64,000 nucleotides of DNA from positions 154 to 64,153 of the forward strand of contig CAZPFY010000001.1 in the NCBI GenBank assembly GCA_964586045.1, read 5' to 3'. Within the stretch, counting starts at the first letter, position 1; each line of letters opens with the position of its first letter. This DNA comes from an uncultured Pseudomonadales bacterium (GTDB lineage: Bacteria; Patescibacteriota; Microgenomatia; UBA1400; MFAQ01). This document shows positions 5,075 through 57,668 of the stretch, one piece after another. The notes under the pieces are model-generated. The model saw only the letters and a program-made list of their open reading frames with translations. It had not been told where the DNA came from and did no database searches. The position numbers and the translations under genes are program-made.

Positions 5075-5190
5075 ATAGCATCGTTGTACATACCGAAGCC
5101 GCTGGTATCTGCAAAGCTTATAACTTTTGGTAATCCTTTTCCTTTTTGAGTCATTGTTTTCTTCTGTTTTTTGAATGGATGGTGAAGAAT

Positions 5191-5559
5191 TTAAAAACTT
5201 ACGGCAAAGTGGACCCAGCCTGCAGTTGTAGATAGAATCCTTAGTTTAACAACTACAACTTTGGTTTGGCCTTTGGGGACGGCCATAAAGTAGTAATCAA
5301 CGGCCTCGCTTTGTTCCTGGGTGTATTCTGATTTGGAAGTATCGATTCCCTCCTCATCAAATTGGACCAATGAAGTTTTTCCTAGAGATTTAATTATCAA
5401 GGTGTCTTTGTCAAAGCTGAGCTGGAGGCGCAGATTTGTTGGATTGAGACCTTCGATAACAAAAATTGGGAGGGAAGTTTCTTTGTCTGGTTTGCTTGTC
5501 CTGACAAAAGCAACTCTTGTAATTTGTATTTGGTTGTAGCCAGGGTTTAAATGATTCAC
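5191..5559 (-). CDS. hypothetical protein
   Basis: 122-aa ORF with a GTG start preceded by AAGGAG. It is the last gene of a three-gene minus-strand operon. Confidence 0.5.
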   Translation of the reverse strand: MNHLNPGYNQIQITRVAFVRTSKPDKETSLPIFVIEGLNPTNLRLQLSFDKDTLIIKSLGKTSLVQFDEEGIDTSKSEYTQEQSEAVDYYFMAVPKGQTKVVVVKLRILSTTAGWVHFAVSF

Positions 5560-31000: not shown

Positions 31001-31891
31001 GGCTGAGCTGGGTTTGGCTTGTTTGATGATTTGGTTGTAGCCCAAAATGCCCATGGTGGTGGTAGCGATTACAAGCAAGGCGAGATGGAAGTAGGGAGTA
31101 AAAGGAAGGGCATTGTACTTGTGGTAAAAAACTGCCAAACGGCTTTTGGAGGGATTCTGAGGGTTTTTGGGTTTGGGAATAAGGCGATTGAGCCAGGCTA
31201 AGGGAGTAATTTTGGCTTCGGTTACGGTAATTTCAAAAGGATCCTTGGGAATTAGACTGCGGTTAAAACAAAAGTGAGTAAGCTTTTTAATAGATGATTG
31301 TCGTCTGCTGATAACAGAAGAGCTGGCGCGGGTTAGTTTTAGATAAGCAATGTAACTAGCTAATTGTTCGGTACTTAAAACTTGTTCGAGGTGGCTAGCG
31401 TTAAAAGGAGTTTGATTGGCAATCCAAGAAAAATAGTGATAAAGATCTGAAAGATAGTTTTTGACGGTAGAATGAGTTTTCTTTTCGTTTATTAATTGTT
31501 GTTTGAATTGTTCAAGAATTTTTTTGCTTGAAAGGTCCTTATTGTTGTTTGCATTGTTTGATGTATTTGGAGTTGGTTCGGATAAAGTTTCTATTTTGGT
31601 GATTTGATACTTGATGTTTAAGAAATTGGATAGTCTTCTGATGGAAGCAAGTCTGCGATTGGTGGTTGCGGGTGGTGTGAGAGTAGAGGATTGTTCCTGA
31701 CTGTATTTGCTGATGTATATTGATAGGTTTTGAAATACTTCGGTAAGATTAAACTGCTTTTGAGATTCCAAAAAGCGAAGAAAGTGCCTAACATCACTAA
31801 GGTAGTTTTTTATGGAAACAGCTGAAAGCCCAGACTCAATAAGAAATGAAGTGAAGAGCTTTAGGATTTCGGTATTGTTGGGCAGGTTCAT
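22046..31891 (-). CDS. giant (3281 aa) surface protein: two tandem integrase core-binding-like N-terminal domains, TM anchor, Gly-rich beta-helix-like regions, internal ~750-aa tandem duplication, C-terminal fibre-like region
   Basis: Uninterrupted 9.8-kb ORF. The two core-binding-like motifs are SIKNYLSDVRHFLRFL and TVKNYLSDLYHYFSWI. The TM is FHLALLVIATTTMGILGY. There are long GGGGG/GGAGG tracts and duplicated modules (ETLRIASVSTSTITFTT... / ETLRISSLAGNVITFTT..., and YFEDEDITN... / YFEDEDEATV...). Confidence 0.85.
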   Translation of the reverse strand: MNLPNNTEILKLFTSFLIESGLSAVSIKNYLSDVRHFLRFLESQKQFNLTEVFQNLSIYISKYSQEQSSTLTPPATTNRRLASIRRLSNFLNIKYQITKIETLSEPTPNTSNNANNNKDLSSKKILEQFKQQLINEKKTHSTVKNYLSDLYHYFSWIANQTPFNASHLEQVLSTEQLASYIAYLKLTRASSSVISRRQSSIKKLTHFCFNRSLIPKDPFEITVTEAKITPLAWLNRLIPKPKNPQNPSKSRLAVFYHKYNALPFTPYFHLALLVIATTTMGILGYNQIIKQAKPSSAATSLTAPRRQLSFQGRLSDSSGTPINTAVNVNFKLWNHLTAGSQLYTTGTCSVTPDSDGVFNSLIGDSVCGSEIPQSVFSDNRDVYLAVTVGAETLTPRQQIATVGYALNSETLQGYPASASATINTVPVIDNSGNLNIAASSPSIVSTSGNFNLKGQSISLTTATNSGGDIVIQPDAIGSGQILAIGGTTTEDTFRTTNANLTTGSLLSGYIGNDIATGSGKLILLSSGATESAKFWVLADGRTSINTATGSAVTSALTVNQNGTGSLFSASASGITKFNISNLGAINMINGVAHSISDVAGNLSLQSAGGNVYISNTSSLQINSAANLIFGGTTTLAESTANNDSGAYLIGVFDEFSNSNSLTVQGVLKDLDTEITNQNIAENWLSSNGAIYPKNSTLDLLVGGQSTLSANFSFLNNNLGTPVASIAGTTYLTGNGTLGTTRRQTLTLGNSSTYNTTGNILLNPNGTGNIGIGTTTPTSKLDVAGDASTSGSLTFRGASPTINVLNGADLSFATSQGGDAGLLTFLKILNSGDLVPGANDETTLGISGTAWKNLFLSQGINNHLGVEQISIANRQLTGTAGTQWNVTSNLRVGDSTNSMPSNMEFYVNGDAKISSTLTIDGTANPALTIGNGTTGTALIGSSTISDAGTTYLSFNTNSTGGDEFRINDSGTITLQSLTAIPTGVAGSIYYNSATISGNLNNVHTIGNTGSLFMYGQDSVWHRLAMDMTAYSTQSATLSGGYVEIAHNQNTNDLSLTGWFYDTVTSLWKKISDWTTTTNQDLAMVNTTSSSTNKLKTTNIALSSTYVYGTGSDGAIAITTDTNINTANSITGRSCADGGDAVNYSVTALTPTTATLSTTPSTGCLSAGDEVLLINLQGTSTKYLNVGNYETLRIASVSTSTITFTTAKNKTYGDDPGNDTNLGTATTNQRVMLQRVPNYTDVTLSNAGTDFTASVWTAPKGGVMFFRASGTVTVPTGTTVNTNSAGYNGGTGGISNNPSDGGESYCNANGGGGGADYDNNPVGSVGICGGGGGGGVNAATLYNANIAGSSIGGAGGGGGSAGAATGASGYGYGGGGAGGGYGTIGNGGKSGNTPTSDGVNGSGVTSGNGGTSAWTTTTGPAYAGGGGGGGTYGDTYLDKAYFGSGGSGGGAGDTGTTTYVASNGGAGGKGGGILMISAATLSVTSTGGIQSNGGAGSAAATATYPGSGGGGAGGSVKIVADTVTTSTTDLITAAGGAGDTTAVDGGTGGVGRIAVSYKNTLTANSSEPDFPTSPYLHQSGYYGIYVSKEINTTGAVNLNSFAYTETLNTYGQVEAQTRTGNTPDSTDGSWEAWKPVVTTTNIKNLNAMDATADWTATNLNAVADGTLARNVNYFEDEDITNAANKSIKLGSVGAENGYAEDTITSTDLTNFDLISAWVYATASGQIKLGIGESAATEQEEIIQIDATGTWQKVYWDISDVASASKNAITKLRITLLSPNQTVYVDSLQSEELIVASGTAPTSTPKNYFQYRFILTSSNGQATPSISNISLTYSDGASHTIDASSIRLANSTDYYSSSHLTVSETALSALSNSGITSNATGVTQAGDYDPGNGADGAGTVTSGTKVLSTDSIVGRTCADAINYSVNTLTSTTATLSTIPSTPSCLKTGDEILLINLQGTQGSIVNVGNYETLRISSLAGNVITFTTSKGKYYGDGAGDDTNLGIGVNNQKVMLQRVPNYTSVTVDSSATLSPSAYDYTTGLGGVLFFRAISAVSVAGSINATGKGYPGGTGAISTTTRSIPGHSLFYTSGVDGDGGTPLTPNNLGQNGVYSGGGGGGRHLTDGIGTGGVGTSTTGAGGGGGAGSASSNGSSYNGYGGGGGGGGYAAGGSGGTGPTIASNGDTNQSGSGTSGGSVGSGFGGGGGGGGAGNYGESSLGKLYLGSGGGGGGAGQATTGTYYSGLAGGGGGGIVIINSDTISVSGSILSKGDDSLTGTAASTQGGGGAGAGGSIKILGNTLSLGSSLVSSNGGAQIAGLSNFEGGSGGDGRVAIYYASTLTGTTSPAAAVAQTPSYNYSMYISEEMPTPNSTGYNKIKWLADLDTYGMIELQTRSGKSANSIDGTWEAWKPVVANTNKLDVIDMNTDTLWGMVDLTRADGGVARNVDYFEDEDEATVGNMTKFSSVGSPNGYSETTVTAKDLTNYDYLTAWVYATSSGNLVKFGFGESTGTEQEKTFYIQAANTWQKIYWDLTDINTTNRNAVTKLRISLPSTNTTLYVDNITADRYLTNADGSTVSSTPNEYFQYRAILTTTNPAYHPTLRSVQLDWSNGFKIVQTDMNTVRLYNKTGETIQIRLDAVVYGADLAEWYTVEDPSIEAGDLVAITGKTDPFGVPILRKTSSPNDQYLVGAISTKAGQELGITAENRRLLGLAGRIPVKIDPSSQDIKAGDSLTSSPLPGFATKAMPNDKVIGTAFEDWIPNIGKGVVLIHINNGIAPNPTTFSSRVYRLISNTNELFDETAGRFVNTVGSFAKVITGSISTNQLVSPTIETSFLTPMASTASITISPNLLSDNTQPLLIVEGQIKASTVFAKQGNFDELNTNSIVTNTITADKIYANQIEGLDAKIASLSSSFNNEEITILTNQISLKLNQNHATSSSSIASEIINNLKLGSNIVMNLLIDNLTVQQKLITPIADIDQLKVNIATVSGTLYANNIKSETIDKLKAQLDVLNEKYSTASSIFASIQEKYSQYDSLFSALDSETNPTNDPLQLSSLATESASLPTDMAFKNLNIEVLTTNDILANGSIFSQSISSFGTDLFIQPSGDKPVHLLANLMTLYPNGQIVVDGDLIVTGNIFANNLDTRTATVSGTLAVGKGELATDSAKILALFNQDGNVVGSVDASGSANFDKLTTYGLVIASGNNLDSTISGQTSSNSTIGTASIATGSSEIFINSSKINDDTLVYITPISDTNNQVLFVKSKQSHVGFTIAIPQPIEDEISFNFWLVQTK
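24000..28550. repeat. approximately 2.3-kb tandem duplication (two copies) within the second giant gene, including Gly-codon (GGN) rich tracts
   Basis: Two homologous ~750-aa protein modules with matching order of motifs. The plus strand shows CCACCACC runs at about 25.0-25.7 kb and 27.3-28.0 kb. The boundaries are approximate. Confidence 0.55.
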
Positions 31892-44865: not shown

Positions 44866-44875
44866 GCAAAAAATT

Positions 44876-44898
44876 GCCTCCCATAAGGGAGGTCTTTT
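44876..44898 (+). terminator. rho-independent terminator after the M16 peptidase gene
   Basis: GCCTCCCATAAGGGAGGT hairpin followed by CTTTTCG. Confidence 0.6.
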
Positions 44899-45052
44899 CG
44901 ATTGGGAATCTGCAAGGGTTAGGGTATTCAATACTTCATGAGTAAGCTCCGTTGCACGGCCTTATCGGCAATTAGTCCGGTTACGCTGGAAAGCGGCCAC
45001 CTGGTTTTTTGAATCAGTTAGGAGCAAATGGCTCCATACCAGGGTGCTAATA

Positions 45053-45110
45053 GGTAGTATTATAACCTATAGTTGCTAATTTGTCAAGTTGGGGAATTTT
45101 TGGCAAAAAA
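45053..45110 (+). repeat. conserved intergenic motif copy A (GGTAGTATTATAACCTATAGTTGCTAATTTGTCAAG, then TTTTTGGCAAAAAAA)
   Basis: Near-identical ~35-bp motif found four times in the window. It may be a promoter or operator. It is immediately followed by a bidirectional terminator-like hairpin at 45112-45165. Confidence 0.6.
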
Positions 45111-45615
45111 ATAACCTGTGTCCATCAGCTTTCGCTATTGATGACTACAGGTTTTTTTGGTTTCGGCTTAAGTATCCGTAACGTTGGCGGCCGCGCTCCC
45201 CACTTTCTGGCGTCCCAACGTGTTAGGTCCTTTATCGCTTCTATGTGTCCTGGGAAGAGGATACTCTGATGAATGTGGAATCTCAACAGATGTCAATTTC
45301 TCCCGATCACCACTGAAAAGCGGTGTTTTAACTTGTCCAAACTACTCTACGCTCCGAGGTTAATCGGGCACTAAGATTCCTTTTTAAGGCCGCTTAATAG
45401 AGATTTACGCTTGGTGATAAGTTTGCTGGACTACGGTGCATAGCCCCACAGGCCTCGTCAATGGACGTCTTACCTTACCTGTGGGGCCACAATATCATTT
45501 TGATTTTTAATGCTCCTTTTTTACACCGGCTCGGCCGGGCTATTGAGGCGCGACTTTGTGCACCAAGGCTTTTTTTGAACCTGGGTTGTAAGAGGGGCGG
45601 GTTGCCCTTCTTGAT

Positions 45616-45674
45616 GAGGTTATTATATCTCATAATGTATCTGTGTCAATAACTAGTTTTTTTGGCAAAAAAAA
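45616..45674 (+). repeat. conserved intergenic motif copy D (divergent; TATTATATCTCATAATGTATCTGTGTCAAT, then TTTTTTGGCAAAAAAAA)
   Basis: Shares TATTATA, CTATA/TCATA, TGTCAA and the TTTTTGGCAAAAAAA extension with copy A. Confidence 0.45.
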
Positions 45675-46131
45675 TGCCAGGTAAGCGATGCAAGCGCGAT
45701 AGTGTCTCGACTAATCTGAGCCACTATGGTTGATATCGTCAGTACCTGGCAGGCCGGTTTTCGGCTGATGGCGACTCTCGTGAGTATCCCCCGAGAGAGT
45801 GCGAACCCATACGAATGGGTTATTCACCGTTATTAGCGGTGCAGCTTTTAAACTCATTGATTGACTCAGCGGGGGATTCCCGTGAAGTGCTTCAGATGAA
45901 GTTTCGCAATTGGGATAAGAATCTATATCACAATTTTGAGCTGCACGAGGGCTTTTCTCCTTTCTTTTCCGCTCAGGGGCGGGTTATTGCCGGCGATCGT
46001 GCCGGACTGTTTTTTTGTGTCCATCGACGCAGGTTCCTGCCTGGAGGGCGAGGATATCGGTGGACGGTGCAGTTTGGCGGATTTTCCGTTCGGGATAGTC
46101 GTTCAAGAGCATCCCTTATCAAACCAAATAT

Positions 46132-46167
46132 GGGAGTATTCTAGCCTATAGTTGCTAATTTGTCAAG
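46132..46167 (+). promoter_or_regulatory. conserved intergenic motif copy B, probably overlapping the promoter of the 46208 gene (TTGCTA, 17 nt spacer, TAGAAT)
   Basis: GGGAGTATTCTAGCCTATAGTTGCTAATTTGTCAAG, with TAGAAT 17 nt after TTGCTA. About 40 nt upstream of the ATG. Confidence 0.5.
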
Positions 46168-46207
46168 ACGATGGTAGAATTGGCCATCCTAATAGTTTGG
46201 AGGAACA

Positions 46208-46474: not shown

Positions 46475-46503
46475 GAGACGCCGTAAGGCGTCTCTTTTAT
46501 TTG
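46475..46503 (+). terminator. rho-independent terminator
   Basis: GAGACGCC-GTAA-GGCGTCTC hairpin followed by TTTTATTT. Confidence 0.75.
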
Positions 46504-46561: not shown

Positions 46562-47152
46562 ATGAGTGATACAAAAACTGGACCGAGGGAGTATCGTCCC
46601 TTGAGTATTCCTGGAGCAACAATAATAAGGCCAAAATTAAACGTGGGTAAGTATGATGGTTGGTTGATTGAGCCGGTGGATTTTTCGGAAGCTAGTTACT
46701 ATTTGGGATATAAATTTGATCCGAGAAGTATGTATGCTACGTGGGCGCCTGAGGGAATTGTCCGCGGTGGTCATATGGAGAGTAGGTCCAAGTTGGTAAC
46801 GATATTGTCTGGTTTGGTTTATTATGTTTTGGTAGATATGCGACCAGGAGAAAATCAGGGTAAGGTGGAGCAGTTTTATTTGGGTGATGGGATAGAAGAG
46901 GCATGGGGAAGATCTGTTTTGGTTCCAGAGGGGGTAATTGATGCTTATGTGGTGGTCAGTGAAAATGCATTGCATTTGGGAGTTGGAGATCAGCCCTATA
47001 ACGCTTTTTATTCTTTGAAGACACTTGACTTGTTTGATAAGAACCTTGGAATTAATTGGCCGGTTATTGGTGATAGAGCAACATACAACGATTCGCATAG
47101 AGATAACCAAGTGGTTTTGCCAAAAGAGGAATTTATAAAAAGTTTGTATTGA
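46562..47152 (+). CDS. RmlC-like cupin (dTDP-4-dehydrorhamnose 3,5-epimerase-like) protein
   Basis: 196 aa. The RmlC-type pattern is RGGHME, then KLVTILSGLVYYVLVDMR, then GRSVLVPEGVIDAYVV, then INWP. Confidence 0.6.
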   Translation: MSDTKTGPREYRPLSIPGATIIRPKLNVGKYDGWLIEPVDFSEASYYLGYKFDPRSMYATWAPEGIVRGGHMESRSKLVTILSGLVYYVLVDMRPGENQGKVEQFYLGDGIEEAWGRSVLVPEGVIDAYVVVSENALHLGVGDQPYNAFYSLKTLDLFDKNLGINWPVIGDRATYNDSHRDNQVVLPKEEFIKSLY

Positions 47153-47155
47153 GAT

Positions 47156-48208
47156 ATGGATAAAAATAATTTACAAAACGATGCAGCTTATGAGGTAGCT
47201 TCAATGAAGAGTAGTGCCAGGTATTGGTTTAAGCGAGATTTTTGCGACATTCGACATGGTAAGGACAGATCGATTTTGATTGCTTTGGAAAAGGCTGGTT
47301 GGAGTGGTGATAATGGGTTGGGTCAATTGCCTTGGAACATCCGAGTTGAGGACAAAAGGTCTTTTCAGGCTTGGAAGTTGGGAATTTTGAGTATTAACGG
47401 TGAAGATAAATTGGTTTTTGAGAGATTTTTGAGAGGTATAAGCGGAGTTAAAACAGATACATTTAATTTATCTTACTTGCCCAATTGGATAATTGAGGAG
47501 TTGGAGCAAGTGGCTTTGGAAATAACTCAGAGGGATTTCGAAAAAGAAGCAGGTGAGTTTGTGGAGAAAATAGCGCGACAAGCAAAAGAGGAAAAACAAA
47601 GTCAAAAAGCAACTTTGTCGGCTAAAGTAGAAGAACTATCGATTGGTGGTTTATTTCATATCATGTCGCAGACGCGAGGCGACGAGAGGGGAAGTTTTCG
47701 GGAGGTAGCCAGAATGCCGGAAATAGAACTTTTGACGGGTTATGATTTTGTGGGGAAGCAAGTAAATCACTCAATGTCCACCTATGGAATTTTGCGAGGG
47801 ATGCACGTAGAACCTTGGGCAAAACTGGTAACGGTGATTCATGGTTTTGCGGTTTCTGTTTTGCTTGATTGCCGTTTGCATTCCAGAACCTATGGCAAGA
47901 TGGAGACTATCTTTTTGGGTTATGGAAAAGCACCGGACGGAGAAGAAGTAAAAGGAGGAGCCCTGTTTATAGAGCCAGGAATTGCGAACTCTGTTTTGGT
48001 TTTATCTGAGAAGATGGATTATCAATATGTAGTTGATGATTTGTGGAGGCCTGAGACAGCACTTTACTCGGTTAATCCCATGGATTCTGAACTAGCAATT
48101 GATTGGGGCAAATATGTGTCTTTGGACAAAATAACCAGGTCGGAAAGAGATACCAAGTCGCCAACATTCGCTGAGTTTACTAAATTAATGAAAGAAAATG
48201 GAAAATAA
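47156..48208 (+). CDS. two-domain protein: unknown N-terminal domain plus C-terminal RmlC-like cupin (sugar-nucleotide epimerase/isomerase-like)
   Basis: 350 aa. The C-terminal half has DERGSF, then LRGMHVEPWAKLVTVIHGFAVSVLLDCR, then ALFIEPGIANSV, then AIDWG, matching the RmlC-like order. Confidence 0.55.
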   Translation: MDKNNLQNDAAYEVASMKSSARYWFKRDFCDIRHGKDRSILIALEKAGWSGDNGLGQLPWNIRVEDKRSFQAWKLGILSINGEDKLVFERFLRGISGVKTDTFNLSYLPNWIIEELEQVALEITQRDFEKEAGEFVEKIARQAKEEKQSQKATLSAKVEELSIGGLFHIMSQTRGDERGSFREVARMPEIELLTGYDFVGKQVNHSMSTYGILRGMHVEPWAKLVTVIHGFAVSVLLDCRLHSRTYGKMETIFLGYGKAPDGEEVKGGALFIEPGIANSVLVLSEKMDYQYVVDDLWRPETALYSVNPMDSELAIDWGKYVSLDKITRSERDTKSPTFAEFTKLMKENGK

Positions 48209-48569
48209 AAATATGAAAGTAGTTGCGGTTGATTTTGATGGGGTAATTCACAAATATTCTAAGGGTTGGGGCGATGGCAGTATTTACGATGTTGCGGTTG
48301 AGGGGGCAAGCGAGAGTTTGGAAAAATTGGTTGCTGACGGATGGAAGGTAATTATTTTTACTACCAGACTTAATCCAGAAGTTAATGAAGATATTTTGCT
48401 GGAGAGAAATAAAATGATGAAGTGGTTACATGATAATGGTATTATTTTGAATCGACATTTTCACGAAATAACGGCGGTGAAGCCATCGGCGAAATATTAT
48501 ATTGATGACAAAGGGATTCGGTTTACTGACTGGGAGGCAACTATCAAATTTGTAAGCGAAAATGCCTGA
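48198..48569 (+). CDS. small HAD-superfamily hydrolase (nucleotidase/phosphatase-like)
   Basis: 123 aa. HAD motif I is VVAVDFDGVIH. A Lys/Asp-containing C-terminal motif (YIDDKG) is consistent with motif III/IV. Confidence 0.55.
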   Translation: MENKNMKVVAVDFDGVIHKYSKGWGDGSIYDVAVEGASESLEKLVADGWKVIIFTTRLNPEVNEDILLERNKMMKWLHDNGIILNRHFHEITAVKPSAKYYIDDKGIRFTDWEATIKFVSENA

Positions 48570-49173
48570 AGTACAAGAAATGTTTGTTAGTGAAGAGAGT
48601 GAGAAAACAGATGAGCTGTTGCGAATAGTGAAAGAGACGAAAAATATGCGTGGTGAGCCGATATATGAAAATTCTGAAATTAGTTTGCGCGAGTTTGACC
48701 CCAAAGATTTACATCCTTCGGCGGTTTATATGTTGGAAGCTAACTTAGAGTTTCTTGAGGCAATGTACTATGACTTGTTTAAAGAAGGAATCGATATTTT
48801 TAATTTGGATCAAATTGTCGAAACAGAGAAATATGGCAAAATTGCTCCGCCAATTGTAGAGATGGCAGTAGATGAAAAAGGTAATCGGGTCCCGACAATA
48901 GTGGATGGAATTCATAGGTCAAAACTAGCGATGTATTTGGGAAAGAGAATAAAAGTGGTTTTGATTGATGGGGTTAACCCTGATTATCCCTTGATTGGTT
49001 TGCCGGCTGATTGGGATGAGGTCAAAATTTACAGAGGGAAGCCTCAGGCTGAGCCAGAACTGAGAAAGTTACGACCAGGCATGGTGGGATTGGAAGACAA
49101 AAGCCATCTCTTTAGAAATCTGGAGCCAGTGGGGGCGAACAAGAGACAGTTGATGGCTTGGCAGAAGGGGTAG
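48562..49173 (+). CDS. ParB/sulfiredoxin-fold (ParB-like nuclease domain) protein
   Basis: 203 aa. PPIVEMAVDEKGNRVPTIVDGIHRSKLAMYLGKRIKVVLIDG contains the DG.HR signature of the ParB N-terminal domain. Confidence 0.45.
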   Translation: MPEVQEMFVSEESEKTDELLRIVKETKNMRGEPIYENSEISLREFDPKDLHPSAVYMLEANLEFLEAMYYDLFKEGIDIFNLDQIVETEKYGKIAPPIVEMAVDEKGNRVPTIVDGIHRSKLAMYLGKRIKVVLIDGVNPDYPLIGLPADWDEVKIYRGKPQAEPELRKLRPGMVGLEDKSHLFRNLEPVGANKRQLMAWQKG

Positions 49174-49321
49174 GTGAGTTGACTTTTGACCCATAGTGTG
49201 ATAGAATACCCAATCGAGGAAGTTCATTGATTTAATATGTTTTAGTTGTCATTTTCTCTTGTTTACGCTCTTCTAAAAGAATGCGTGTGATAAGAAAAGA
49301 TGGCTAATTTGCGGAGGCAAA

Positions 49322-50140
49322 ATGGCAGATTGGAAGGAGTTGCTTGCCCAGTGGCAGCAAAATATTGAACGTAAATACCCAAAGTTGGTTGGAACGAAGG
49401 CGCTGCTTGGTGTAGCTGCCTGGTATAACCGTGTTCTTAACGAATTGGGTGACTACACCATTGAAGAGGCACCGATGGAAGATGCTCTCTGGAAAGTGGT
49501 TCACGATGACGACGGCAAACATTTGCGCATTGAGAGATACGATGGTACTTTTTTTAGAGTTATCAGCGTACTTTGTCGCAAGGGTAAGTCTACTTGGCTA
49601 CAGCCGGTACTGGAAAGCATCCATTCGCTCATGAAAGTGGTGTTGTGGGGTGAAGAGGTAGAGGTGCCGGTTTATGGACTGTTGATGGTCATTCGTGACA
49701 GTGAAGGCAAGATTTTGCTATCAATAGGCCAAGAAACCATGGCTGATACACCCAAGAAAGCGGTGGTTAGATTGCCCCTGCAAGCATCTTGGGGAAAGAT
49801 TTTGTTGATGCTGGCCGGGAAGGCGAGTGATGTAAGTATCGAAGCCTTGATGGCGATTTATGACTGCCAAACCGTGCAAGAGCTGTTAGCCCTTGCTGTC
49901 GAAAGAGGGCGAGAGCCTTTTGAGGATTTAGATCGTGGTTGGAAAAACAATGTCGTTTGGATTATGCCGACCGTACAGGTTGGTACCGAACTTCACGAAA
50001 AACTGACCTCGAACGGATCCATGATGTGGGTTGATCCTTTGCAGTGGAAGATTATCAAGATGTCGGGACTGACGGGTTTGCATACAGTTGGTCCTATTGA
50101 CATGATGTACACGTTGGATGCTCTGAAGGAATACGAGTAA
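49322..50140 (+). CDS. hypothetical protein (noticeably higher GC and Trp content than neighbours)
   Basis: 272-aa ORF with no recognizable motif. Local GC is visibly higher than the window average. Confidence 0.45.
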   Translation: MADWKELLAQWQQNIERKYPKLVGTKALLGVAAWYNRVLNELGDYTIEEAPMEDALWKVVHDDDGKHLRIERYDGTFFRVISVLCRKGKSTWLQPVLESIHSLMKVVLWGEEVEVPVYGLLMVIRDSEGKILLSIGQETMADTPKKAVVRLPLQASWGKILLMLAGKASDVSIEALMAIYDCQTVQELLALAVERGREPFEDLDRGWKNNVVWIMPTVQVGTELHEKLTSNGSMMWVDPLQWKIIKMSGLTGLHTVGPIDMMYTLDALKEYE

Positions 50141-50149
50141 TTTTGTTGA

Positions 50150-50180
50150 GACTGTCTTTGATTAGGCAGTCTTTTTTTTG
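50150..50180 (+). terminator. rho-independent terminator
   Basis: GACTGTCTTTGATTAGGCAGTC hairpin followed by TTTTTTTT. Confidence 0.75.
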
Positions 50181-50386
50181 TGCCAAAATTTAGTTTAAAA
50201 AAAAGAATCCCCGCTCTGGAGCGGGGTTCGGTTGGGGTGAAGTAGGTTGCTTGGCCTAAGTGTCTGTTGTCGCACCGTCGAAACGCAACAGTGGGGCTTA
50301 GCGGGCTCTAATCACACCCTTTTGGGTATGGAAGGAGGGGGAACCTCCTTTTTCGGGGCTGGATTTCCAGCAAAAGTTAAGTTGTA

Positions 50387-50421
50387 GGAGTATTTTATCC
50401 TATAATTGTTTATTTGTCAAC
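50387..50421 (+). promoter_or_regulatory. conserved intergenic motif copy C upstream of the 50525 gene
   Basis: GGAGTATTTTATCCTATAATTGTTTATTTGTCAAC is the same motif as copies A and B. Confidence 0.45.
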
Positions 50422-50524
50422 TTGGGTGGCTTGGGGCGATATTTATGATATCTTGTGCCTAAAATATGACAACTGATATGACAACTGACGAAATGTACTT
50501 GACAACTATATTTAAACTGTTAAA

Positions 50525-51565
50525 ATGTATTGTATAAGTATGACCATACAAGATCAGATAATAAAAATCGCAACAAAAGAGGGAACTGTTAGGACCGCTG
50601 ATGTTTTAAAGAGTTTAAAGCCTGCGGTAACTAGGGGATACTTGAGTTTAATAATGTCTCGAATGACAAGAGATGGTTTGCTAGTGAAAACAGGATCAAC
50701 TTCAAAGTCTGTATATGCTTTGTATAAAAATGGAGATTTGCTGGGAAATGTCTTTAAAAAGCATTTGGCTAGAAGCACCACAAAAGAACATGAAGTACTG
50801 GATGTGCTTAACAGAAAAGTGCCTTTTTTGTTTAAATTGGATGAAAACTTGAGAAGCATTTTGGATTTTTCTTTTTCTGAAATGTTAAATAACGCCTTAG
50901 AACATTCTGAATCAAAGTATATTGACATTAAGGTATTTGTTGATTCTAAATACCTGAATTTTACTGTGTCTGACCTTGGTATTGGTGTTTTTAAAAATGT
51001 AATGAAGAAGAGGGGTTTGGGGTCGGAATTCGAGGCCATGCAGGATATTTTGAAAGGAAAAACTACCACTCAACCCCATGCACATTCTGGCGAAGGAATC
51101 TTTTTTACTTCAAAAATGGCTGACATATTTGTTTTGGAAAGTTATGGATACTCGATGAGAGTGGATAATATAATTCCTGATATATTTTTTGAGCAAGTTA
51201 AACCGATTAAAAAAGGAACGAGAGTGCATTTTTGCATTAGAAGAGAGACTGATAAACACTTGAAAGATACTTTTATGAACTACGAAACTGATCACGAAGA
51301 TCCCGATTTTGACAAAACAGAGATTCACGTAAAACTATATAAAATAGGCACGGTTTACGTATCTCGATCACAAGCTAGGAGAATTTCATATGGTCTTGAG
51401 AAGTTTAATCACGTTGTTTTGAACTTTGAAAAAGTACCAACTATCGGACAAGCTTTTGCAGACGAGATATTTAGAGTTTTTAAAAATAAATATCCAAATA
51501 TTTTGATTACCTCTATTAATATGAATGAGGCGGTTAAGTATATGGTTAATAGAGCGAGTAAATAG
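50525..51565 (+). CDS. HATPase_c (GHKL, anti-sigma-factor/RsbW-like) ATP-binding protein with N-terminal wHTH-like region and C-terminal STAS-like (DUF4325-like) domain
   Basis: EMLNNALEHS (N-box), VSDLGIGV (G1) and SGEGIFFTS (G2). The C-terminus VVLNFEKVPTIGQAFADEIFRVF is STAS-like. Confidence 0.5.
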   Translation: MYCISMTIQDQIIKIATKEGTVRTADVLKSLKPAVTRGYLSLIMSRMTRDGLLVKTGSTSKSVYALYKNGDLLGNVFKKHLARSTTKEHEVLDVLNRKVPFLFKLDENLRSILDFSFSEMLNNALEHSESKYIDIKVFVDSKYLNFTVSDLGIGVFKNVMKKRGLGSEFEAMQDILKGKTTTQPHAHSGEGIFFTSKMADIFVLESYGYSMRVDNIIPDIFFEQVKPIKKGTRVHFCIRRETDKHLKDTFMNYETDHEDPDFDKTEIHVKLYKIGTVYVSRSQARRISYGLEKFNHVVLNFEKVPTIGQAFADEIFRVFKNKYPNILITSINMNEAVKYMVNRASK

Positions 51566-51568
51566 AAT

Positions 51569-51808
51569 TTATTTTTTTGGCTTGGGGGGGTGTTTGGCCT
51601 CGGATTGTTTGATGCTGGTGCAGATGGGGCAGAGGGTTGGTTTGTCGGTTGACCAGTTTGTCGGTTGACCAGTTTGTCGGTTGATCGGTTTGTCGGTGTT
51701 TCGGAGTTGCTCGTAGACGGAGTAGACAAAAGGATTGCCACAGTTTTCGCATTTTAGAAGTTGGTCTTGCATGAGAGTATTATATCCGCTAAGGGTGGAA
51801 GAGTACAA
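51569..51808 (-). CDS. small zinc-ribbon protein with an in-frame 17-bp tandem repeat expansion
   Basis: CENCGN...CPIC forms the Cys4 pair. The central repeat encodes NRQTGQPTNWSTDKLVNRQT variants. Confidence 0.45.
   Translation of the reverse strand: MYSSTLSGYNTLMQDQLLKCENCGNPFVYSVYEQLRNTDKPINRQTGQPTNWSTDKPTLCPICTSIKQSEAKHPPKPKK
51640..51700. repeat. 17-bp tandem repeat (GTTTGTCGGTTGACCAG, about 3.5 copies)
   Basis: Direct inspection. Copies are at 51640, 51657 and 51674, plus a partial fourth. Confidence 0.85.
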
Positions 51809-51844
51809 AAAACTCCGGCCAAAGAGGTCGGAGTGATTATAAAA

Positions 51845-52570
51845 TTAAATGCGATTGGCAAGCATTTTTTTGTAGTCTGATTCGGAGAGGTAGATGGATA
51901 GACGTTCGTAGTTTTCATCACCGAAAACCGCGCCGTCCCAATCGATACCTAAGAGGTTTTCTTTGAGATATAGACTGTCATCGGTTTCAAAATCTGCCGC
52001 CAAATAGTCCTCGGTAAAAACAACTTCCAAAATGGGATTTTGAAGAGTGTCGTCTTTGAAGAAATCAACGTCCTTTACTCGGAGGCGGAAGGAAACCATT
52101 TCGCCGGTGCAGAGTGTTGTGGAGATCTCGACCAGATCGTTCTCTGAGTCGTAACCATTGATGCTGATTTCTTTTCTGTCGCCGAACTGGAAGAACTTTG
52201 CGATGATCGACATGTTGGTGTAGTCTTCGAGGCCGTTTGCCTTTAACCAGATTTCAAATTCTTCCTCCAGGTTGATGGCAAACTCTTCTTCGTCGCTGGT
52301 GAGTACATCTTCTTCCAAAACTTCTTCTTCGAGAACCTCTTCTAAATCTTCTGTTTCCACAATGGTGCCATTTTCAGCTACATTAACGACAGGTGAAGGA
52401 ATGTTGTACCCCTGAACGTAGCTGGACATATCGCGAGGTTGATTGTACCTTTTTATGGCTAAATAGCCTTGCCAGACGGCGACCCCTACAAGAGCCAATA
52501 CGAAAACGAGGATTAAGAACTGACCAAATCCGGTGCACCAAAATGAGATTGATTCAAGACCACATGACAT
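51845..52570 (-). CDS. membrane-anchored acidic hypothetical protein
   Basis: 241 aa. N-terminal TM (FLILVFVLALVGVAVW), then a Glu/Asp-rich region EEVLEEEVLEEDVL. Confidence 0.5.
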   Translation of the reverse strand: MSCGLESISFWCTGFGQFLILVFVLALVGVAVWQGYLAIKRYNQPRDMSSYVQGYNIPSPVVNVAENGTIVETEDLEEVLEEEVLEEDVLTSDEEEFAINLEEEFEIWLKANGLEDYTNMSIIAKFFQFGDRKEISINGYDSENDLVEISTTLCTGEMVSFRLRVKDVDFFKDDTLQNPILEVVFTEDYLAADFETDDSLYLKENLLGIDWDGAVFGDENYERLSIYLSESDYKKMLANRI

Positions 52571-52736
52571 GAGATTTTCTCCTGGTTATAAATTTGCGTA
52601 CTTACCGCATTATTATACCATTTTGGTGGACTTAGCCGGAATCGGACCGGCGACTCTGCAATGCGAATGCAGCGGTATACCACTTACCTATAAGCCCTAA
52701 TAACTTTGATTTTACTGGATTATGCTATAAATAGTT

Positions 52737-54440
52737 ATGGAATTTGACGATGTTAATAAGGACAGTGAGGTTTTGCGCCAACTTGGGGTAGAAATAAGTT
52801 TTGTGGAGGGGAAAAAGAATGTTTTGGTGGAGAATGAAGGATGGAGATACTATCGTAGTGAGGTTCAAGTAAAAATTGATGAGAAAAATTTGAGTATCCA
52901 GGAGTATCAGAGAGCTGGTGAGGTTTTGGCAAAGTTTAAAAACTACACCTTTAGTATTTGGAGTATTGAAAAAGTATCTAGTATGGAAGAAGTCGTTGCA
53001 ACTTTGAAAGAAGATGGGGCTTTTTTTGGTGAGTGTGGTTTGGCGTCGAACCCTGATCAGTTTGATAACGAGACCTGTTCAACTGTAGTAAGTCTTAATA
53101 ACGAAGCTAATGAAAGAAGAATAAAGAAAAAAATGTTTTTGGGTTTTTCTTGTCCTGGGTTTGGCGGATCTAGTTTGAAAGATGATGAGGTTTCGGAGGA
53201 AAATGTGGGGATTGAGTCGTATTTGCAAATAAATAATTTTATGTTGGATACCTTGGGTGTAAACGTTAGCAAAAGTGTTCTTTTGGGGCATTCTGCTGGC
53301 GGAGAGAAAGCTTTGGGGATGTCGAGTAGATTGAGAGTCGTAGCTCTAAACCCGGCGGTGCACGAAGAGGAAGATAAGGTTTTTGGAGGACTAGAGTTTC
53401 CTAATTCGATTGCTAAACTCTTTCGTACTGAGATAACTAGTAGCACGGTAGATTATTTTGTTGATAAAGTGGTCAAATACAATGTTGGTGCTACAGAGGC
53501 GATGTTGGTGGCGTCAAATAATTTGGCGATGAATGCTCAAGTGGCTAATCACCGTGAGGAGATAAAAAATAACTTTAAAGCATATATTGCTAAATCAAAA
53601 GAATTAATTAGACCAGATGTTTTGAGAAATTATGGAGGGAATCCGATGGTGGTGGTAGGTGGTAGAGCAGATAGGCTGACGCCGTGGGATAAGGCGTTGG
53701 AATCTATCAAAAAAATGATTGGGGAAAAGGGTGGAGTAAAAGTAGTTTCGGAGGAGGAACTGGGTGTTGATAAACTCCATCACGATACGGTGTTTATGAA
53801 TAAGGAGGCAAATGCGAAAGTGGCTAAGATGGCCTGGGATCTTTTGGATTTGCCGATGGTGGAGGAAAGAGTGGTGGTTGAAAAAGTTCCTGTTGCTAAA
53901 TTGGTTGTGGCTGAATTACCACAAGCAAGAGAATATGACGGTCATAAAGAAAAATTGGATATTTTGTTTCGTTGGGAAATGTTTGCTTTGGAGGCAAAAG
54001 GTTGGGTGGACTTGATTAAAAGTGGTTCTGACCAGAAGCCAACAACGAGAGATTTTGTAGAGGCATATGATAAGTGGATTTTGAGTTATGAACCAATAGC
54101 TGAAATAATCGAAAGAAAAAAACTGGACGGAAGTGGTATTGCTACTATGGTGGGAGATTTGTTTACCAGTGTCGATAAAGTGTATGACGGGGTTAAATAT
54201 CCAATGTTTTCCTTTTTTGGTCAGGCGGATACTATTTCGGAGATGCAAACCTTGAGGATTGGGTTGGGGGTACTTGCTATATATTATGGTTCTTGGAGTA
54301 AAAAAGGAGATGTTGGATCGATAGATTTTTTGGTTAGTGCTCTTGAGGAACAGATTGTGCCATTTGTGGAACGAAAAAATAATGGTGGAAAAATTGGATT
54401 AAGCCCGATTGAGTTAGCGATTAAGAGTTTGGAGAAATAA
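52737..54440 (+). CDS. alpha/beta-hydrolase-fold protein (esterase/lipase-like) with a long C-terminal extension
   Basis: 567 aa. The nucleophile elbow LLGHSAGG (GxSxG) sits about 100 aa after an N-terminal unknown domain. Confidence 0.55.
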   Translation: MEFDDVNKDSEVLRQLGVEISFVEGKKNVLVENEGWRYYRSEVQVKIDEKNLSIQEYQRAGEVLAKFKNYTFSIWSIEKVSSMEEVVATLKEDGAFFGECGLASNPDQFDNETCSTVVSLNNEANERRIKKKMFLGFSCPGFGGSSLKDDEVSEENVGIESYLQINNFMLDTLGVNVSKSVLLGHSAGGEKALGMSSRLRVVALNPAVHEEEDKVFGGLEFPNSIAKLFRTEITSSTVDYFVDKVVKYNVGATEAMLVASNNLAMNAQVANHREEIKNNFKAYIAKSKELIRPDVLRNYGGNPMVVVGGRADRLTPWDKALESIKKMIGEKGGVKVVSEEELGVDKLHHDTVFMNKEANAKVAKMAWDLLDLPMVEERVVVEKVPVAKLVVAELPQAREYDGHKEKLDILFRWEMFALEAKGWVDLIKSGSDQKPTTRDFVEAYDKWILSYEPIAEIIERKKLDGSGIATMVGDLFTSVDKVYDGVKYPMFSFFGQADTISEMQTLRIGLGVLAIYYGSWSKKGDVGSIDFLVSALEEQIVPFVERKNNGGKIGLSPIELAIKSLEK

Positions 54441-54465
54441 AAAAACCTCTCGACGGATCGGGAGG
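54438..54465 (-). terminator. rho-independent terminator (minus strand) after the 54473..54958 gene
   Basis: On the minus strand: CCTCCCGATCCGTCGAGAGG hairpin followed by TTTTTTT. Confidence 0.65.
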
Positions 54466-54472
54466 CGATTGG

Positions 54473-54958
54473 TTATTGAAACTTAAGGCCGGCGTTGTAT
54501 TTTTCGAACTGAGTTTTTGTACAGTGGATGTTGAGATGTTTAATGCCGCTATAGACTAGGTCGTCCCAGTCCATAGGGCCATAAGCTTTTTCGTCCAAGT
54601 AATTATCACAAAACTCGATGTTGCAATCGGGGACGGTTGGAAGGAGGGCACTGTGCTCGGGATCGATAAAAAATTTGATTTTGTCGCGGTATATTCTAAA
54701 GGGAACCGCCTGTCCATCCTTTGGGTTTCTCAAGTAAACACTAAATTGATATTCACTTTCTCTTATAATGCTTACGACTTCAATTCCCTTTTGAAAGAGG
54801 AATTGAAGGTTGGTTAATAGCACTTCTCGACGAGTGGGGAGTTTGTCTTCTTTGGCAATGAGGTGGTTGACAAATCGGACCAAGGCAAAGATGAAGATGG
54901 CGGCCAAAATAAGGCAGGGCCAGGTGGTACAGATGAATGCATATTTTTCGCAGAACAT
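54473..54958 (-). CDS. membrane-anchored hypothetical protein
   Basis: 161 aa with an N-terminal TM (ILAAIFIFALVRFV). Confidence 0.45.
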   Translation of the reverse strand: MFCEKYAFICTTWPCLILAAIFIFALVRFVNHLIAKEDKLPTRREVLLTNLQFLFQKGIEVVSIIRESEYQFSVYLRNPKDGQAVPFRIYRDKIKFFIDPEHSALLPTVPDCNIEFCDNYLDEKAYGPMDWDDLVYSGIKHLNIHCTKTQFEKYNAGLKFQ

Positions 54959-54974
54959 GAATGATCTCCTCGAT

Positions 54975-55529
54975 TTATGCGTGGTTGGGATTTGTGAGGC
55001 TTTCGAAAACAGCGTCGTACTGTGCTTGAGTTACGCTAACTTCGATATTTGACGCCATCTTGAATATTTTTTCGATGGTGACGTTTTTCATTGCTGCTTC
55101 GAGATCGCCGTCGGAGTAATAGCCGCAACTGAAATCGTTTTGGAGTAAAGATTCGTCGTAAATGAAATGCGCGTTGGGCTTGTCTGCGTATGGATTAATA
55201 ATCCAATTAACGGTATTGAGATCAACTTTGATGCCTACAATAGTGCGACCCACTTGTACAGACAGAGTAATGTCTCTATCCTCCCAGTCGACTTTGGGAA
55301 TGCCAATAACATACCAGCTTCGAACACCAAACAAGATTTCAATTATTGATCTGTTGCTGCGATTGGGGAGATTTTTTTTCCTTAACCATTCCTGGTTGGC
55401 TGTTTCGATTTGGTCCTTTGCTTTTTGAGCCTTACGATTCTCGATGGTGGTGAATAGCCAAATGATTAGTCCAACTGCAACCAAAATGGCTGCCACGATA
55501 AGTGCTGCAATCAGTTTTGAATTTTCCAT
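54975..55529 (-). CDS. membrane-anchored hypothetical protein
   Basis: 184 aa with an N-terminal TM (LIAALIVAAILVAVGLIIWLF). Confidence 0.45.
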   Translation of the reverse strand: MENSKLIAALIVAAILVAVGLIIWLFTTIENRKAQKAKDQIETANQEWLRKKNLPNRSNRSIIEILFGVRSWYVIGIPKVDWEDRDITLSVQVGRTIVGIKVDLNTVNWIINPYADKPNAHFIYDESLLQNDFSCGYYSDGDLEAAMKNVTIEKIFKMASNIEVSVTQAQYDAVFESLTNPNHA

Positions 55530-55629
55530 TTTTACCTTCCTTCTTTTTCAAAGTGGGATAGATTTCAACCTATATTATACCACTTGATAGTGTTGTCAAG
55601 AGAGATTAGTTGGTATAATTACCTTTGTT

Positions 55630-55702
55630 GGGCCCTTAGCTCACCTGGTAGAGCGTCTCTATGGCATAGAGAAGGTAGTCGGTTCGAGTCCGATAGGGTC
55701 CA
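55630..55702 (+). tRNA. tRNA-Ala (anticodon GGC)
   Basis: Cloverleaf by hand-folding. The 7-bp acceptor stem contains the G3:U70 Ala identity pair. D arm is GCTC/GAGC. Anticodon stem is TCTCT/AGAGA with loop ATGGCAT. T arm is GTCGG-TTCGAGT-CCGAT. CCA is not encoded. Confidence 0.9.
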
Positions 55703-55736
55703 CAACTTCGTTATGATGCTCAGAATAAGGGTCCAC

Positions 55737-57668
55737 TTATTTTGTGGGTGTGGGTGTGGGGGTTGGGGTTACAACCGATTTGAGATTTTCCGTAAGATCA
55801 GTGAGCTCTTTTTGGAGTTTGTCGTAGTTTGGAGTTTGGGGAGAGATAAGAGTGAGAGCTTGCTTGAGATTGGCTTGAGCTTTGGCGTAATCCTGGTTTT
55901 GAAGATAAATTTGGTAAAGGTTGAGATAGGGAATTTCCCAGTTTGATTTAAGGTCAAGACTTTGGTTGATGAGTTTTATAGCTTGGTCTTTGTCTTGGAG
56001 GTTGTAGTACAAAATACCTAACTGAAGCCTTAGTTTGGGGTTTGTGGGGTCCAGGGAAATGGCTTGAGCCAAGTGAGAGATGGCCAGGTCTGGAGCGCCT
56101 TCGGCGACGCCAATAAAGGCTTGGTAAATTCCGGAGAGATTTTCCCAAACAAGAACGTTGACGGGGTCAATTTTGGCGGCGATACGGCCAGAGTCGATGG
56201 CGCGTTGCATGGTCTGAATGGTATTTTTTTTGTCTTCTTCGGTGGGGTCTTGTTTTTGAAGATAGTAGGTAGCGACTTGTTGGTAAGTTTGAGAAAGAAC
56301 CATGGGGTAAGTAGAGTAATAGGGGTTTAGTTTTTGGGCCTCAACTTGTTTGAGGAAAGAGCCGGTGATGTCTGTATTTATTTTTTGGCTAGCTTGATAG
56401 AGTGATTGTGAAGCTCTGTAAAAAGGAAGACCAAATGACCAGTAAGTGTAAACAGCGATCGTGGAAATAATGAGAGAAACAATGGGTAAAAAGTGGGTAA
56501 GAACTTTGTTTTGTTGGCCTTCGCTACTAATGTTAAAGTGAAGATCTTTGATTTGGGAATCGTCATTTTTTTTGTAAATTTGGGTTAGAGTTCCCAAAAG
56601 GGTGGTGGCGATCACAATACTGGTAATGCCGGTAGGAGTAATAACGAAGGAGATTAAAAAGCCAATAAGGGAAACAATGATAAAGCCAAGAATTGGTTTG
56701 GATTCGGAGTTTTTAAAACTCTTGATAGCCTTAGAAATATTTTTTGTAAATAGAACCAAAAAGCTGAGGCCACCGATAAGGCCGGAAGTAGTAAGAATAG
56801 TGAGAAGAAAGGATCCAGATTCACTAAACCGAATGTTCCAGATTTTGGTGTTGTTTAAATAGGCAGGACGAAGTTGAGTAAAAGTGGAAAAATAGTTTTC
56901 TGGTCCGGTGCCCAAAAAAGCAGTTTTGGGATTTTTGAAGATATCGAGAGCTATAGACCAGCTGGCTTTAAGTGGTAAAAGAGTGATGGGGGAAACATTA
57001 TTTTTTGGAAGAAGCAAACTGATGTCGATAATGGCGGCGGAGATGGCAAAAACGGAAATGAAGAATAAAAAGATTTTGGTTTTGGAGTTTGATTCGAGAA
57101 AAGTGTAGTAGATGGTGCCAAGAAGCAAGGGGATGGTAAGAGATAGCGCGGGGATAACGCCGCCTGTTAAGTTAAAAAAGTTGCCTTGGGTGATTTCGGC
57201 GCCAAAAAGATATTTGGTAAGGCCGAAAAAGTGAAGGATGGTGATAAGACTTATGATGAGCAGGGAAAGTAGGAGGGTAAAAAGATGTCTTTTGACTTGG
57301 CGCAGACTGGGCTTGGTGGAGGTATAGGCCAAAGTGATGAAAAAGAGAGAGGTAAAAAGAGTGGTAAGACCTGTGAGGCTTAAAATTTTGGTAGGGCTGA
57401 TAAAAAAGGCAGACGCGATGTGGGCGAGGACTAAAACAAAAATGATTTTTAAGCTAGGAGAAAGAGTAATGTTTATTTTGTTGCTAAGAATATTTTGAAG
57501 ACACCACAAAATTAAGGAGGCGCTGCCAATGGCGTTTAGAAGATAAAATTTGTTAAAAGCGAAGTAGTCGACGGTGTTAGTTAAGAAAAAAAGAGGGATT
57601 AAAAAAAAGACGAGAGTGGGGATGTTTTGGAGGGCGAAGTAAACGGTTTTTTCTAAGGAATTGCGCAT
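55737..57668 (-). CDS. polytopic membrane protein (O-antigen ligase/Wzy-like) with C-terminal TPR repeats
   Basis: 643 aa. At least 10 hydrophobic helices in the first ~430 aa. The C-terminus has TPR-like repeats (AISLDPTNPKLRLQLGILYYNLQDKDQAIKLINQSLDL...). The end is Pro/Thr-rich. Confidence 0.55.
   Translation of the reverse strand: MRNSLEKTVYFALQNIPTLVFFLIPLFFLTNTVDYFAFNKFYLLNAIGSASLILWCLQNILSNKINITLSPSLKIIFVLVLAHIASAFFISPTKILSLTGLTTLFTSLFFITLAYTSTKPSLRQVKRHLFTLLLSLLIISLITILHFFGLTKYLFGAEITQGNFFNLTGGVIPALSLTIPLLLGTIYYTFLESNSKTKIFLFFISVFAISAAIIDISLLLPKNNVSPITLLPLKASWSIALDIFKNPKTAFLGTGPENYFSTFTQLRPAYLNNTKIWNIRFSESGSFLLTILTTSGLIGGLSFLVLFTKNISKAIKSFKNSESKPILGFIIVSLIGFLISFVITPTGITSIVIATTLLGTLTQIYKKNDDSQIKDLHFNISSEGQQNKVLTHFLPIVSLIISTIAVYTYWSFGLPFYRASQSLYQASQKINTDITGSFLKQVEAQKLNPYYSTYPMVLSQTYQQVATYYLQKQDPTEEDKKNTIQTMQRAIDSGRIAAKIDPVNVLVWENLSGIYQAFIGVAEGAPDLAISHLAQAISLDPTNPKLRLQLGILYYNLQDKDQAIKLINQSLDLKSNWEIPYLNLYQIYLQNQDYAKAQANLKQALTLISPQTPNYDKLQKELTDLTENLKSVVTPTPTPTPTK

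Follow-up and report, generated by a model that had tools for sequence, protein, structure and literature searches.

Do the five co-oriented genes at positions 46562 to 50140 of the 64-kb stretch of contig CAZPFY010000001.1 analysed here (the window; mean GC 0.426) constitute a single acquired unit? The initial annotation had read this plus-strand block as two RmlC-like cupins (here cup1 and cup2), a minimal HAD hydrolase, a ParB-fold protein and a hypothetical protein of higher GC, and had raised the possibility of a nucleotide-related function or of a small defence or mobile-island cargo. Our comparison of the locus with its relatives shows that the block is neither a coherent new system nor an island but a core operon with optional cargo. 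In the reading that we consider the probable one, it is a composite of three layers: a cupin pair, an optional cassette encoding the HAD and ParB-fold proteins, and an orphan gene.

All five open reading frames (ORFs) are real and have the coordinates originally described. Four of them have orthologues in other genomes at 44–71% identity and are thus not chance ORFs. Identical copies of the locus are present in groundwater metagenome assemblies, and the close relatives of cup2 all come from Candidatus Collierbacteria, which belong to the Microgenomates of the candidate phyla radiation (CPR). The window itself comes from a groundwater member of this lineage.

A cupin pair present in all Collierbacteria genomes compared

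The comparison covered 18 distinct genomes, made up of 13 GTDB species loci together with contigs retrieved through protein look-up. Related loci and contigs compared with the window carry L-numbers (L003, L012 and so on), and L012 and L027 are counted as one genome. A cup1 orthologue lies immediately 5′ of cup2 in all 18 genomes. The pair is found in two contexts: ComEA–ComEC–MBL–M16 peptidase–cup1–cup2, which is syntenic with the window, and ArgRS–AspRS–cup1–cup2–ThrRS, which lies within a cluster of aminoacyl-tRNA synthetase genes. Both are housekeeping settings.

The proposal that all five genes were acquired as one unit fails on this distribution, since the cupin pair is found in 18 of 18 genomes, in 12 of them without the cassette, and in housekeeping contexts. 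The two cupins are not cargo gained by horizontal transfer; as one part of the three-layer reading and with the same fair degree of probability, we take them to be a vertically inherited pair specific to Candidatus Collierbacteria.

A homologue search with cup2 returned 51 relatives at 52–71% identity, most of them two-domain proteins and about eight of them shorter, consisting of the cupin domain only. In L019 (1816–3270) the cup1 orthologue forms the C-terminal part of an ORF of 484 amino acids (aa), a length that reflects either an N-terminal fusion or an ORF called too long.

cup2 is a predicted RmlC-type epimerase and cup1 a probable degenerate paralogue

As initially annotated, both cupins belong to the family of RmlC (dTDP-4-dehydrorhamnose 3,5-epimerase; PF00908; PDB 2IXC, 1DZR and 6C46), with PF00908 scores of 52.3 bits for cup1 and 103.6 bits for cup2 against a gathering cut-off of 27. 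Unlike RmlC itself, both fall under the cut-off of the rmlC equivalog model TIGR01221 (38.3 and 75.1 bits, respectively, versus 155.75). The PF00908 match in cup2 covers residues 161–340, and the extra N-terminal domain noticed earlier is real (about 160 aa). This addition to the RmlC architecture, which we delimit as the 155 residues 1–155 (about 47156–47620), has no structural match and, in our reading, is lineage-specific.

We aligned the cupins to solved RmlC sequences, including that of M. tuberculosis RmlC, and read conservation across 15 orthologues of cup1 and 33 sequences of cup2. The catalytic residues of the M. tuberculosis enzyme, which we take from the RmlC structural literature to be H62, K72, Y132 and D171/172, correspond in cup2 to His217, Lys223, Tyr291 and Asp332. 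These four are invariant in the 33 sequences, as are Arg178, Phe181, Glu183, Gln202, Asn204 and Arg214 at nucleotide-binding positions; the single departure from RmlC is in the GFAHGF motif, where Asn takes the place of the conserved His. The cupin part of cup2 shows extreme conservation and has an RmlC-type fold. On the strength of these conserved residues and the fold, cup2 is most likely an active epimerase of nucleoside diphosphate (NDP)-4-keto-6-deoxyhexoses, which would use His/Tyr acid–base chemistry at C3′ and/or C5′.

In cup1 the His (in RGGH) and the Lys (in RSK) are retained. Among its 15 orthologues the Tyr position is occupied by Gly, Ala, Ser or Val and the C-terminal Asp region is unconserved, and cup1 has no counterparts of the nucleotide-contacting Arg, Gln and Asn of RmlC. 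It is probably a degenerate paralogue, serving as a non-canonical or partner subunit, and is unlikely to be catalytic itself. In RmlC enzymes, which are dimers, residues of both chains contribute to the active sites, from which we infer that cup1 probably pairs with cup2 as a heterodimer.

The genomic setting also differs from that of RmlC. The cupin genes are always paired, and no rmlA, rmlB or rmlD turned up, either among the larger ORFs scanned in the 64-kb window or in some 30 related loci. The same scan of larger window ORFs bears out the earlier remark that no glycosyltransferase, dehydratase or reductase lies nearby.

An optional HAD–ParB-CE cassette directly 3′ of cup2

Five of the 18 genomes carry the HAD gene and the gene for the ParB-fold protein (ParB-CE, after its Pfam family) as an intact cassette directly 3′ of cup2: the window, its closest relative L003 (an assembly rich in frameshifts), L012/L027, L020 and L026. 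In L028, which the cup2 tree places as sister to the window, the cassette has decayed to fragments after cup2 (5031–5457), of which the first ~20 codons of the HAD gene (IAIDFDGVIH...) and the last ~60 codons of ParB-CE are left. These remnants show a cassette in the process of loss. The other 12 genomes, all with the cupin pair, contain no trace of HAD or ParB-CE. A neighbour-joining tree of cup2 groups four genomes that have or once had the cassette in one clade and puts L020 in a different one, whose nearest members, L017 and L029, are cassette-free. Exchange between lineages or repeated loss could each have produced this patchiness.

The cassette is tightly joined to the cupin genes. In the window, cup2 and the HAD gene overlap by 11 nucleotides (nt) and the HAD and ParB-CE genes by 8 nt, as the initial annotation had stated, although an alternative HAD start at 48213, chosen by one gene caller, abolishes the first of these overlaps. 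In orthologous loci the genes either overlap slightly or have junctions of +5 to +10 nt. From cup1 to ParB-CE the window has no predicted internal promoter or terminator, and this run is bracketed by a promoter after ParB-CE and a terminator ahead of cup1; the latter hairpin closes an upstream gene for an 80-aa membrane protein and marks the 5′ limit of the cupin operon. Since the genes touch or overlap and the only predicted signals lie before and after them, cup1, cup2, HAD and ParB-CE most likely form one operon.

The HAD phosphatase and the ParB-CE family

The product of the first cassette gene, originally described as a minimal DxDGV hydrolase, has all four HAD motifs (DFDGV, FTTR, KP and IDD, with residues D12-F-D14, T55/T56, K95 and D103-D104), which are conserved in its orthologues. 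Across six members of the family the motif Asp and Lys residues are invariant, and the motif II Thr alternates with Ser. Significant matches are those of the protein to phrog_1238 (E 3.5e-22) and of its family profile to PDB 2OBB (E 1.7e-5). No named HAD model is reached at its curated cut-off by this 123-aa protein, which scores 31 bits (E 2.7e-7; cut-off 165) against NF046079, the model of BT0820-type HAD phosphatases, and 15.9 (cut-off 27) against Hydrolase_6. With about 120 aa, no cap and four motifs, it resembles the capless HADs of the BT0820/VC0232 type (PDB 2OBB and 1XPJ; NF046079; phrog_1238). It differs from them in lying far under the NF046079 cut-off, in its own signature, DFDGVIHxYxxGWxDxxxYD, and in its linkage to a ParB-CE gene. 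Also close to it among known systems is the phosphatase domain of polynucleotide kinase from phages (phrog_415).

The 203-aa product of the second cassette gene matches PF24392 (‘ParB CE domain’) over residues 33–154 with 57 bits against a cut-off of 23, which confirms the ParB/sulfiredoxin (Srx) fold with a DG.HR motif recognised earlier. Conserved residues of the family present in this protein are Y35, P52, Y56, PPxxE100 (PPIVE), DGxHR119 and W151, and the C-terminal YRDxSxLGSxGRRP motif is partly degenerate. PPxxE and DGxHR are conserved throughout the family, and DGxHR is the phosphate-binding loop that it shares with the rest of the ParB/Srx superfamily. Unlike partition ParB, the protein has no helix-turn-helix (HTH) or other DNA-binding domain, nor any further domain match, and there is no ParA-like gene in its neighbourhood. 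The family also differs from partition ParB in being fused to HD, NUDIX or HAD hydrolases. An exhaustive HMMER search yielded 355 representative ParB-CE relatives, which are mostly stand-alone proteins with lengths near 200 aa. A scan of 27 relatives that are longer or have several domains found a phosphohydrolase domain in about 15 (HD in at least eight, NUDIX in five and HAD in one). Among solved sequences, the family profile finds only the L-serine kinase SbnI, which has the ParB/Srx fold, at a marginal E of 0.018. We found no reported function for the PF24392 family in the literature; outside partition systems, ParB/Srx domains act as NTPases, nucleases or kinases (PMC5512222; PMC10853773).

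An alignment-based metagenome scan for ParB-CE neighbourhoods returned a single locus, L025 (6–1780), on an unrelated, AT-rich and phage-like metagenome contig. Here ParB-CE, two small ORFs, a HIT-like protein with the motif HFHLHL and a HAD protein of the same subfamily as that of the window (E 1e-23) are encoded by co-oriented, tightly packed genes. One downstream ORF on L025 matches a phage protein family. The neighbours of two further, distant ParB-CE genes are unrelated, and none of these three ParB-CE contexts outside Collierbacteria includes a cupin. The order cupin–HAD–ParB, for which a neighbourhood analysis had been suggested, recurs in other Collierbacteria and in none of these three contexts.

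The partners of ParB-CE point away from DNA partition and towards chemistry on nucleotides or phospho-metabolites. Because of the domain fusions and the linkage with HIT and HAD, we favour a two-enzyme module for the cassette, at the same better-than-even confidence as the composite to which it belongs. ParB-CE would bind a nucleoside triphosphate (NTP) through its DGxHR loop and either hydrolyse it or transfer its phosphate; the HAD protein would then strip phosphate from the product of ParB-CE or from a nucleotide. The two would make up a small module for nucleotide or phospho-metabolite processing, and the cassette would be a dispensable two-gene unit that is read from the cupin operon. The nucleotide role put forward in the initial annotation is thus plausible for the HAD/ParB pair.

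The orphan gene and the variable region

The compositional shift noted for the fifth gene is real: its GC is 0.474 (GC3 0.524), compared with the window mean of 0.426 and with 0.38–0.42 in the four preceding genes. The 272-aa product has no match in Pfam, NCBIfam, PHROG or PADLOC and no PDB sequence match, and a search of 5.8 billion proteins returned only the protein itself. Distant homologues are confined to L003 (28% identity) and L019 (32%, on the opposite strand and with no cassette), and the position and orientation of the gene differ among genomes independently of the cassette. Given its own promoter and terminator and this independent variation, the gene is not part of one five-gene unit. 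What stands of the single block is the four-gene arrangement, which recurs intact in five genomes and decayed in a sixth. Since it has its own promoter and terminator, we hold it probable, jointly with the other two layers, that the 272-aa gene is a separate transcription unit and unrelated strain-level cargo.

The gene lies in a hypervariable stretch that is bounded on one side by cup2/ParB-CE and on the other by two conserved minus-strand genes, one for a treble-clef zinc-finger protein (zf_Tbcl) and one for a TPR membrane protein. Depending on the genome, cup2 is followed by nothing, by a protein of ~213 aa, by a 609-aa protein, by HTH proteins or by a reversed homologue of the 272-aa gene. 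In the window the stretch holds orphans of 241, 567 (alpha/beta-hydrolase-like), 161 and 184 aa, two tRNA-Ala genes, and a 346-aa protein that joins a histidine-kinase-like ATPase domain (HATPase_c) to a C-terminal, STAS-like DUF4325. This last gene (GC 0.336) has no orthologue in the related loci compared and no PADLOC match, and is likely to be recently acquired cargo.

In the cassette-free L009 (8116–8757) and L011 (7552–8190), the gene directly after cup2 encodes the ~213-aa protein, which has an H..HD..D motif. Its match to the Pfam HD family is below threshold (E 0.0077), and it has no PDB or NCBIfam match. It may be another phosphohydrolase at the cassette position. A link to the ParB-CE-fused HD domains is unsupported, as the protein shows no similarity to the HD domain joined to ParB-CE in P0110.

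Alternative explanations

One alternative is a single four-gene pathway, in which a nucleotide-linked sugar or a sugar phosphate would be processed stepwise by cup1, cup2, HAD and ParB-CE. For example, phosphorylation by the ParB-like protein, dephosphorylation by the HAD protein and epimerisation by the cupins would yield a modified sugar-nucleotide or a modification of a nucleotide or of DNA. Such a pathway would account for the finding that five genomes, drawn from two branches of the cup2 tree, share one gene order in which the genes touch or overlap, although this shared position could stem from a single insertion, in which case the five occurrences are not independent. It would also fit the small-molecule kinase SbnI as the closest, albeit marginal, solved relative of ParB-CE, the HAD family's weak matches to GmhB, a heptose-bisphosphate phosphatase, and to a HAD protein of capsule biosynthesis, and the fact that GDP-heptoses are also substrates of RmlC-like enzymes. 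However, the cupin pair occurs with no trace of the cassette in 12 of the 18 genomes, the cassette is decayed in one, and the three ParB-CE contexts outside Collierbacteria have no cupin neighbour. We regard the pathway as unlikely. A more specific version, in which the cupins, HAD and ParB-CE of some Collierbacteria constitute one undescribed pathway with the N-terminal domain of cup2 as its docking platform, is distinctly improbable; if it were true, an NTP-using ParB/Srx enzyme, a phosphatase and an RmlC-type epimerase would together make or recycle an unusual sugar-nucleotide or a modified nucleotide.

The defence or mobile-island explanation would make the HAD, ParB-CE, 272-aa and HATPase–STAS genes horizontally acquired conflict genes, for instance nucleotide-depleting or nuclease effectors in a variable island. 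Their patchy presence in a hypervariable region and their uneven GC, which ranges from that of the HATPase–STAS gene to that of the 272-aa gene on either side of the window mean, are in keeping with this, as are the NTPase or DNase activities of ParB/Srx domains in conflict systems (PMC5512222; PMC10853773), the frequency of the HAD family among phages, and the L025 contig, on which ParB-CE, HIT and HAD are accompanied by a phage-family ORF. Against it, the sole PADLOC match, between the HAD protein and a restriction-enzyme model, is at chance level (E 0.009); tblastn with ParB-CE found nothing in 50,697 phage and 72,556 plasmid records, and a scan of IMG/VR for ParB-CE was likewise blank. No integrase, transposase or att-like repeat lies at the borders of the cassette, the GC of the HAD (0.376) and ParB-CE (0.417) genes is in the host range, and the divergence of both genes among genomes resembles that of neighbouring core genes. 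With no defence model, phage or plasmid match behind it, this part of the initial annotation is not supported, and we consider it quite unlikely.

Several observations nevertheless weigh against the three-layer composite that we prefer. The cassette is always at one site and in the same operon as the cupins, which would fit a functional link as well. The HAD proteins of L027 and L020 are 72% identical, compared with 57% for cup2, and HAD identities depart from the cup2 tree, which makes exchange between lineages possible and not loss alone. With no rmlA, rmlB or rmlD in the window, the source of a substrate for cup2 is not accounted for there. Finally, we could not trace in the full-text literature the origin or meaning of ‘CE’ in the Pfam names ParB-CE, HD-CE and PRTase-CE.

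Flanking repeats, candidate non-coding RNAs and the wider window

The ‘flanking conserved motifs’ that had added to the suspicion of horizontal origin are probably a repeat of ~40 nt, copies of which flank the block (Table 1). The repeats bear promoters, with perfect or near-perfect −35/−10 hexamers on the minus strand. A mobile island bounded by these repeats was rejected, because they are minus-strand promoters and the cupin genes that they enclose are syntenic core.

Upstream of the block is a 1.3-kb gap (44866–46207) with no convincing ORF and a GC of 0.466. Most syntenic genomes lack it and have no more than about 100 nt between the M16 peptidase gene and cup1. Its minus strand has perfect or near-perfect promoters and a terminator, and the predicted transcripts of about 185, 521 and 477 nt have fold z-scores of −1.0, −3.6 and −4.7, respectively, with no Rfam match even at E≤1. 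On the other side of the block (50200–50426, minus strand), the third repeat copy is predicted to drive a C-rich transcript of 186 nt to a terminator; its fold z-score is −4.2, and it too has no Rfam match. The minus-strand transcripts predicted on both sides are candidate new non-coding RNAs.

The rest of the window encodes the housekeeping proteins Rho, Obg, ComEA/ComEC, DprA and ComM, two giant proteins and many orphans. The giant ORFs are both on the minus strand, and the second (22046–31891) has local stretches of markedly raised GC, up to 0.54.

Table 1. Coordinates of the block, its signals and its surroundings in the window
Feature	Position	Strand	Description
Giant ORF	9271–19608	−	3445 aa
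Giant ORF	22046–31891	−	3281 aa
Terminator in upstream gap	44892–44877	−	
Repeat, copy 1	45049–45088	−	~40 nt, promoter-bearing
Sigma-70 promoter in gap	45087–45059	−	Perfect or near-perfect
Sigma-70 promoter in gap	45649–45622	−	Perfect or near-perfect
Repeat, copy 2	46127–46167	−	~40 nt, promoter-bearing
Sigma-70 promoter in gap	46166–46138	−	Perfect or near-perfect
Intrinsic-terminator-like hairpin	46475–46494	+	8-bp stem with 6 GC pairs, then T-run
cup1, RmlC-family cupin	46562–47152	+	196 aa, PF00908
cup2, N-terminal domain and RmlC-type cupin	47156–48208	+	350 aa, PF00908
Small capless HAD-superfamily phosphatase	48198–48569	+	123 aa, phrog_1238
ParB/Srx-fold protein (ParB-CE)	48562–49173	+	203 aa, PF24392
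Hypervariable stretch	49174–55730		
Sigma-70-like promoter of 272-aa gene	49179–49207	+	TTGACT-17-TAGAAT, extended TG
Orphan protein	49322–50140	+	272 aa, family-less, raised GC
Intrinsic-terminator-like hairpin after 272-aa gene	50148–50173	+	10-bp stem, then T-run
Terminator of predicted 186-nt transcript	50226–50209	−	
Repeat, copy 3	50385–50426	−	~40 nt, promoter-bearing
HATPase–STAS protein	50525–51565	+	346 aa, HATPase_c and DUF4325
tRNA-Ala	52624–52697	−	
tRNA-Ala	55630–55703	+	
TPR membrane protein	55737–57668	−	Conserved

Implications

The block is only moderately unusual, and what is new here is modest: a lineage-specific, paired variant of RmlC and a lead from gene context for the ParB-CE family. 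Of the by-products, the non-coding candidates on both sides of the block are the most intriguing: they have strong promoters, are highly structured and belong to no Rfam family. For ParB-CE, which is uncharacterised, the repeated occurrence of HAD, HD, NUDIX and HIT phosphohydrolase partners provides a functional lead. CPR genomes are tiny and the cupin pair is present in every Collierbacteria genome compared, so the pair is probably important for the envelope or for nucleotide-sugar metabolism. An intact RmlC-like enzyme that comes with a degenerate paralogue and a structurally unmatched N-terminal domain is a clear target for biochemistry.

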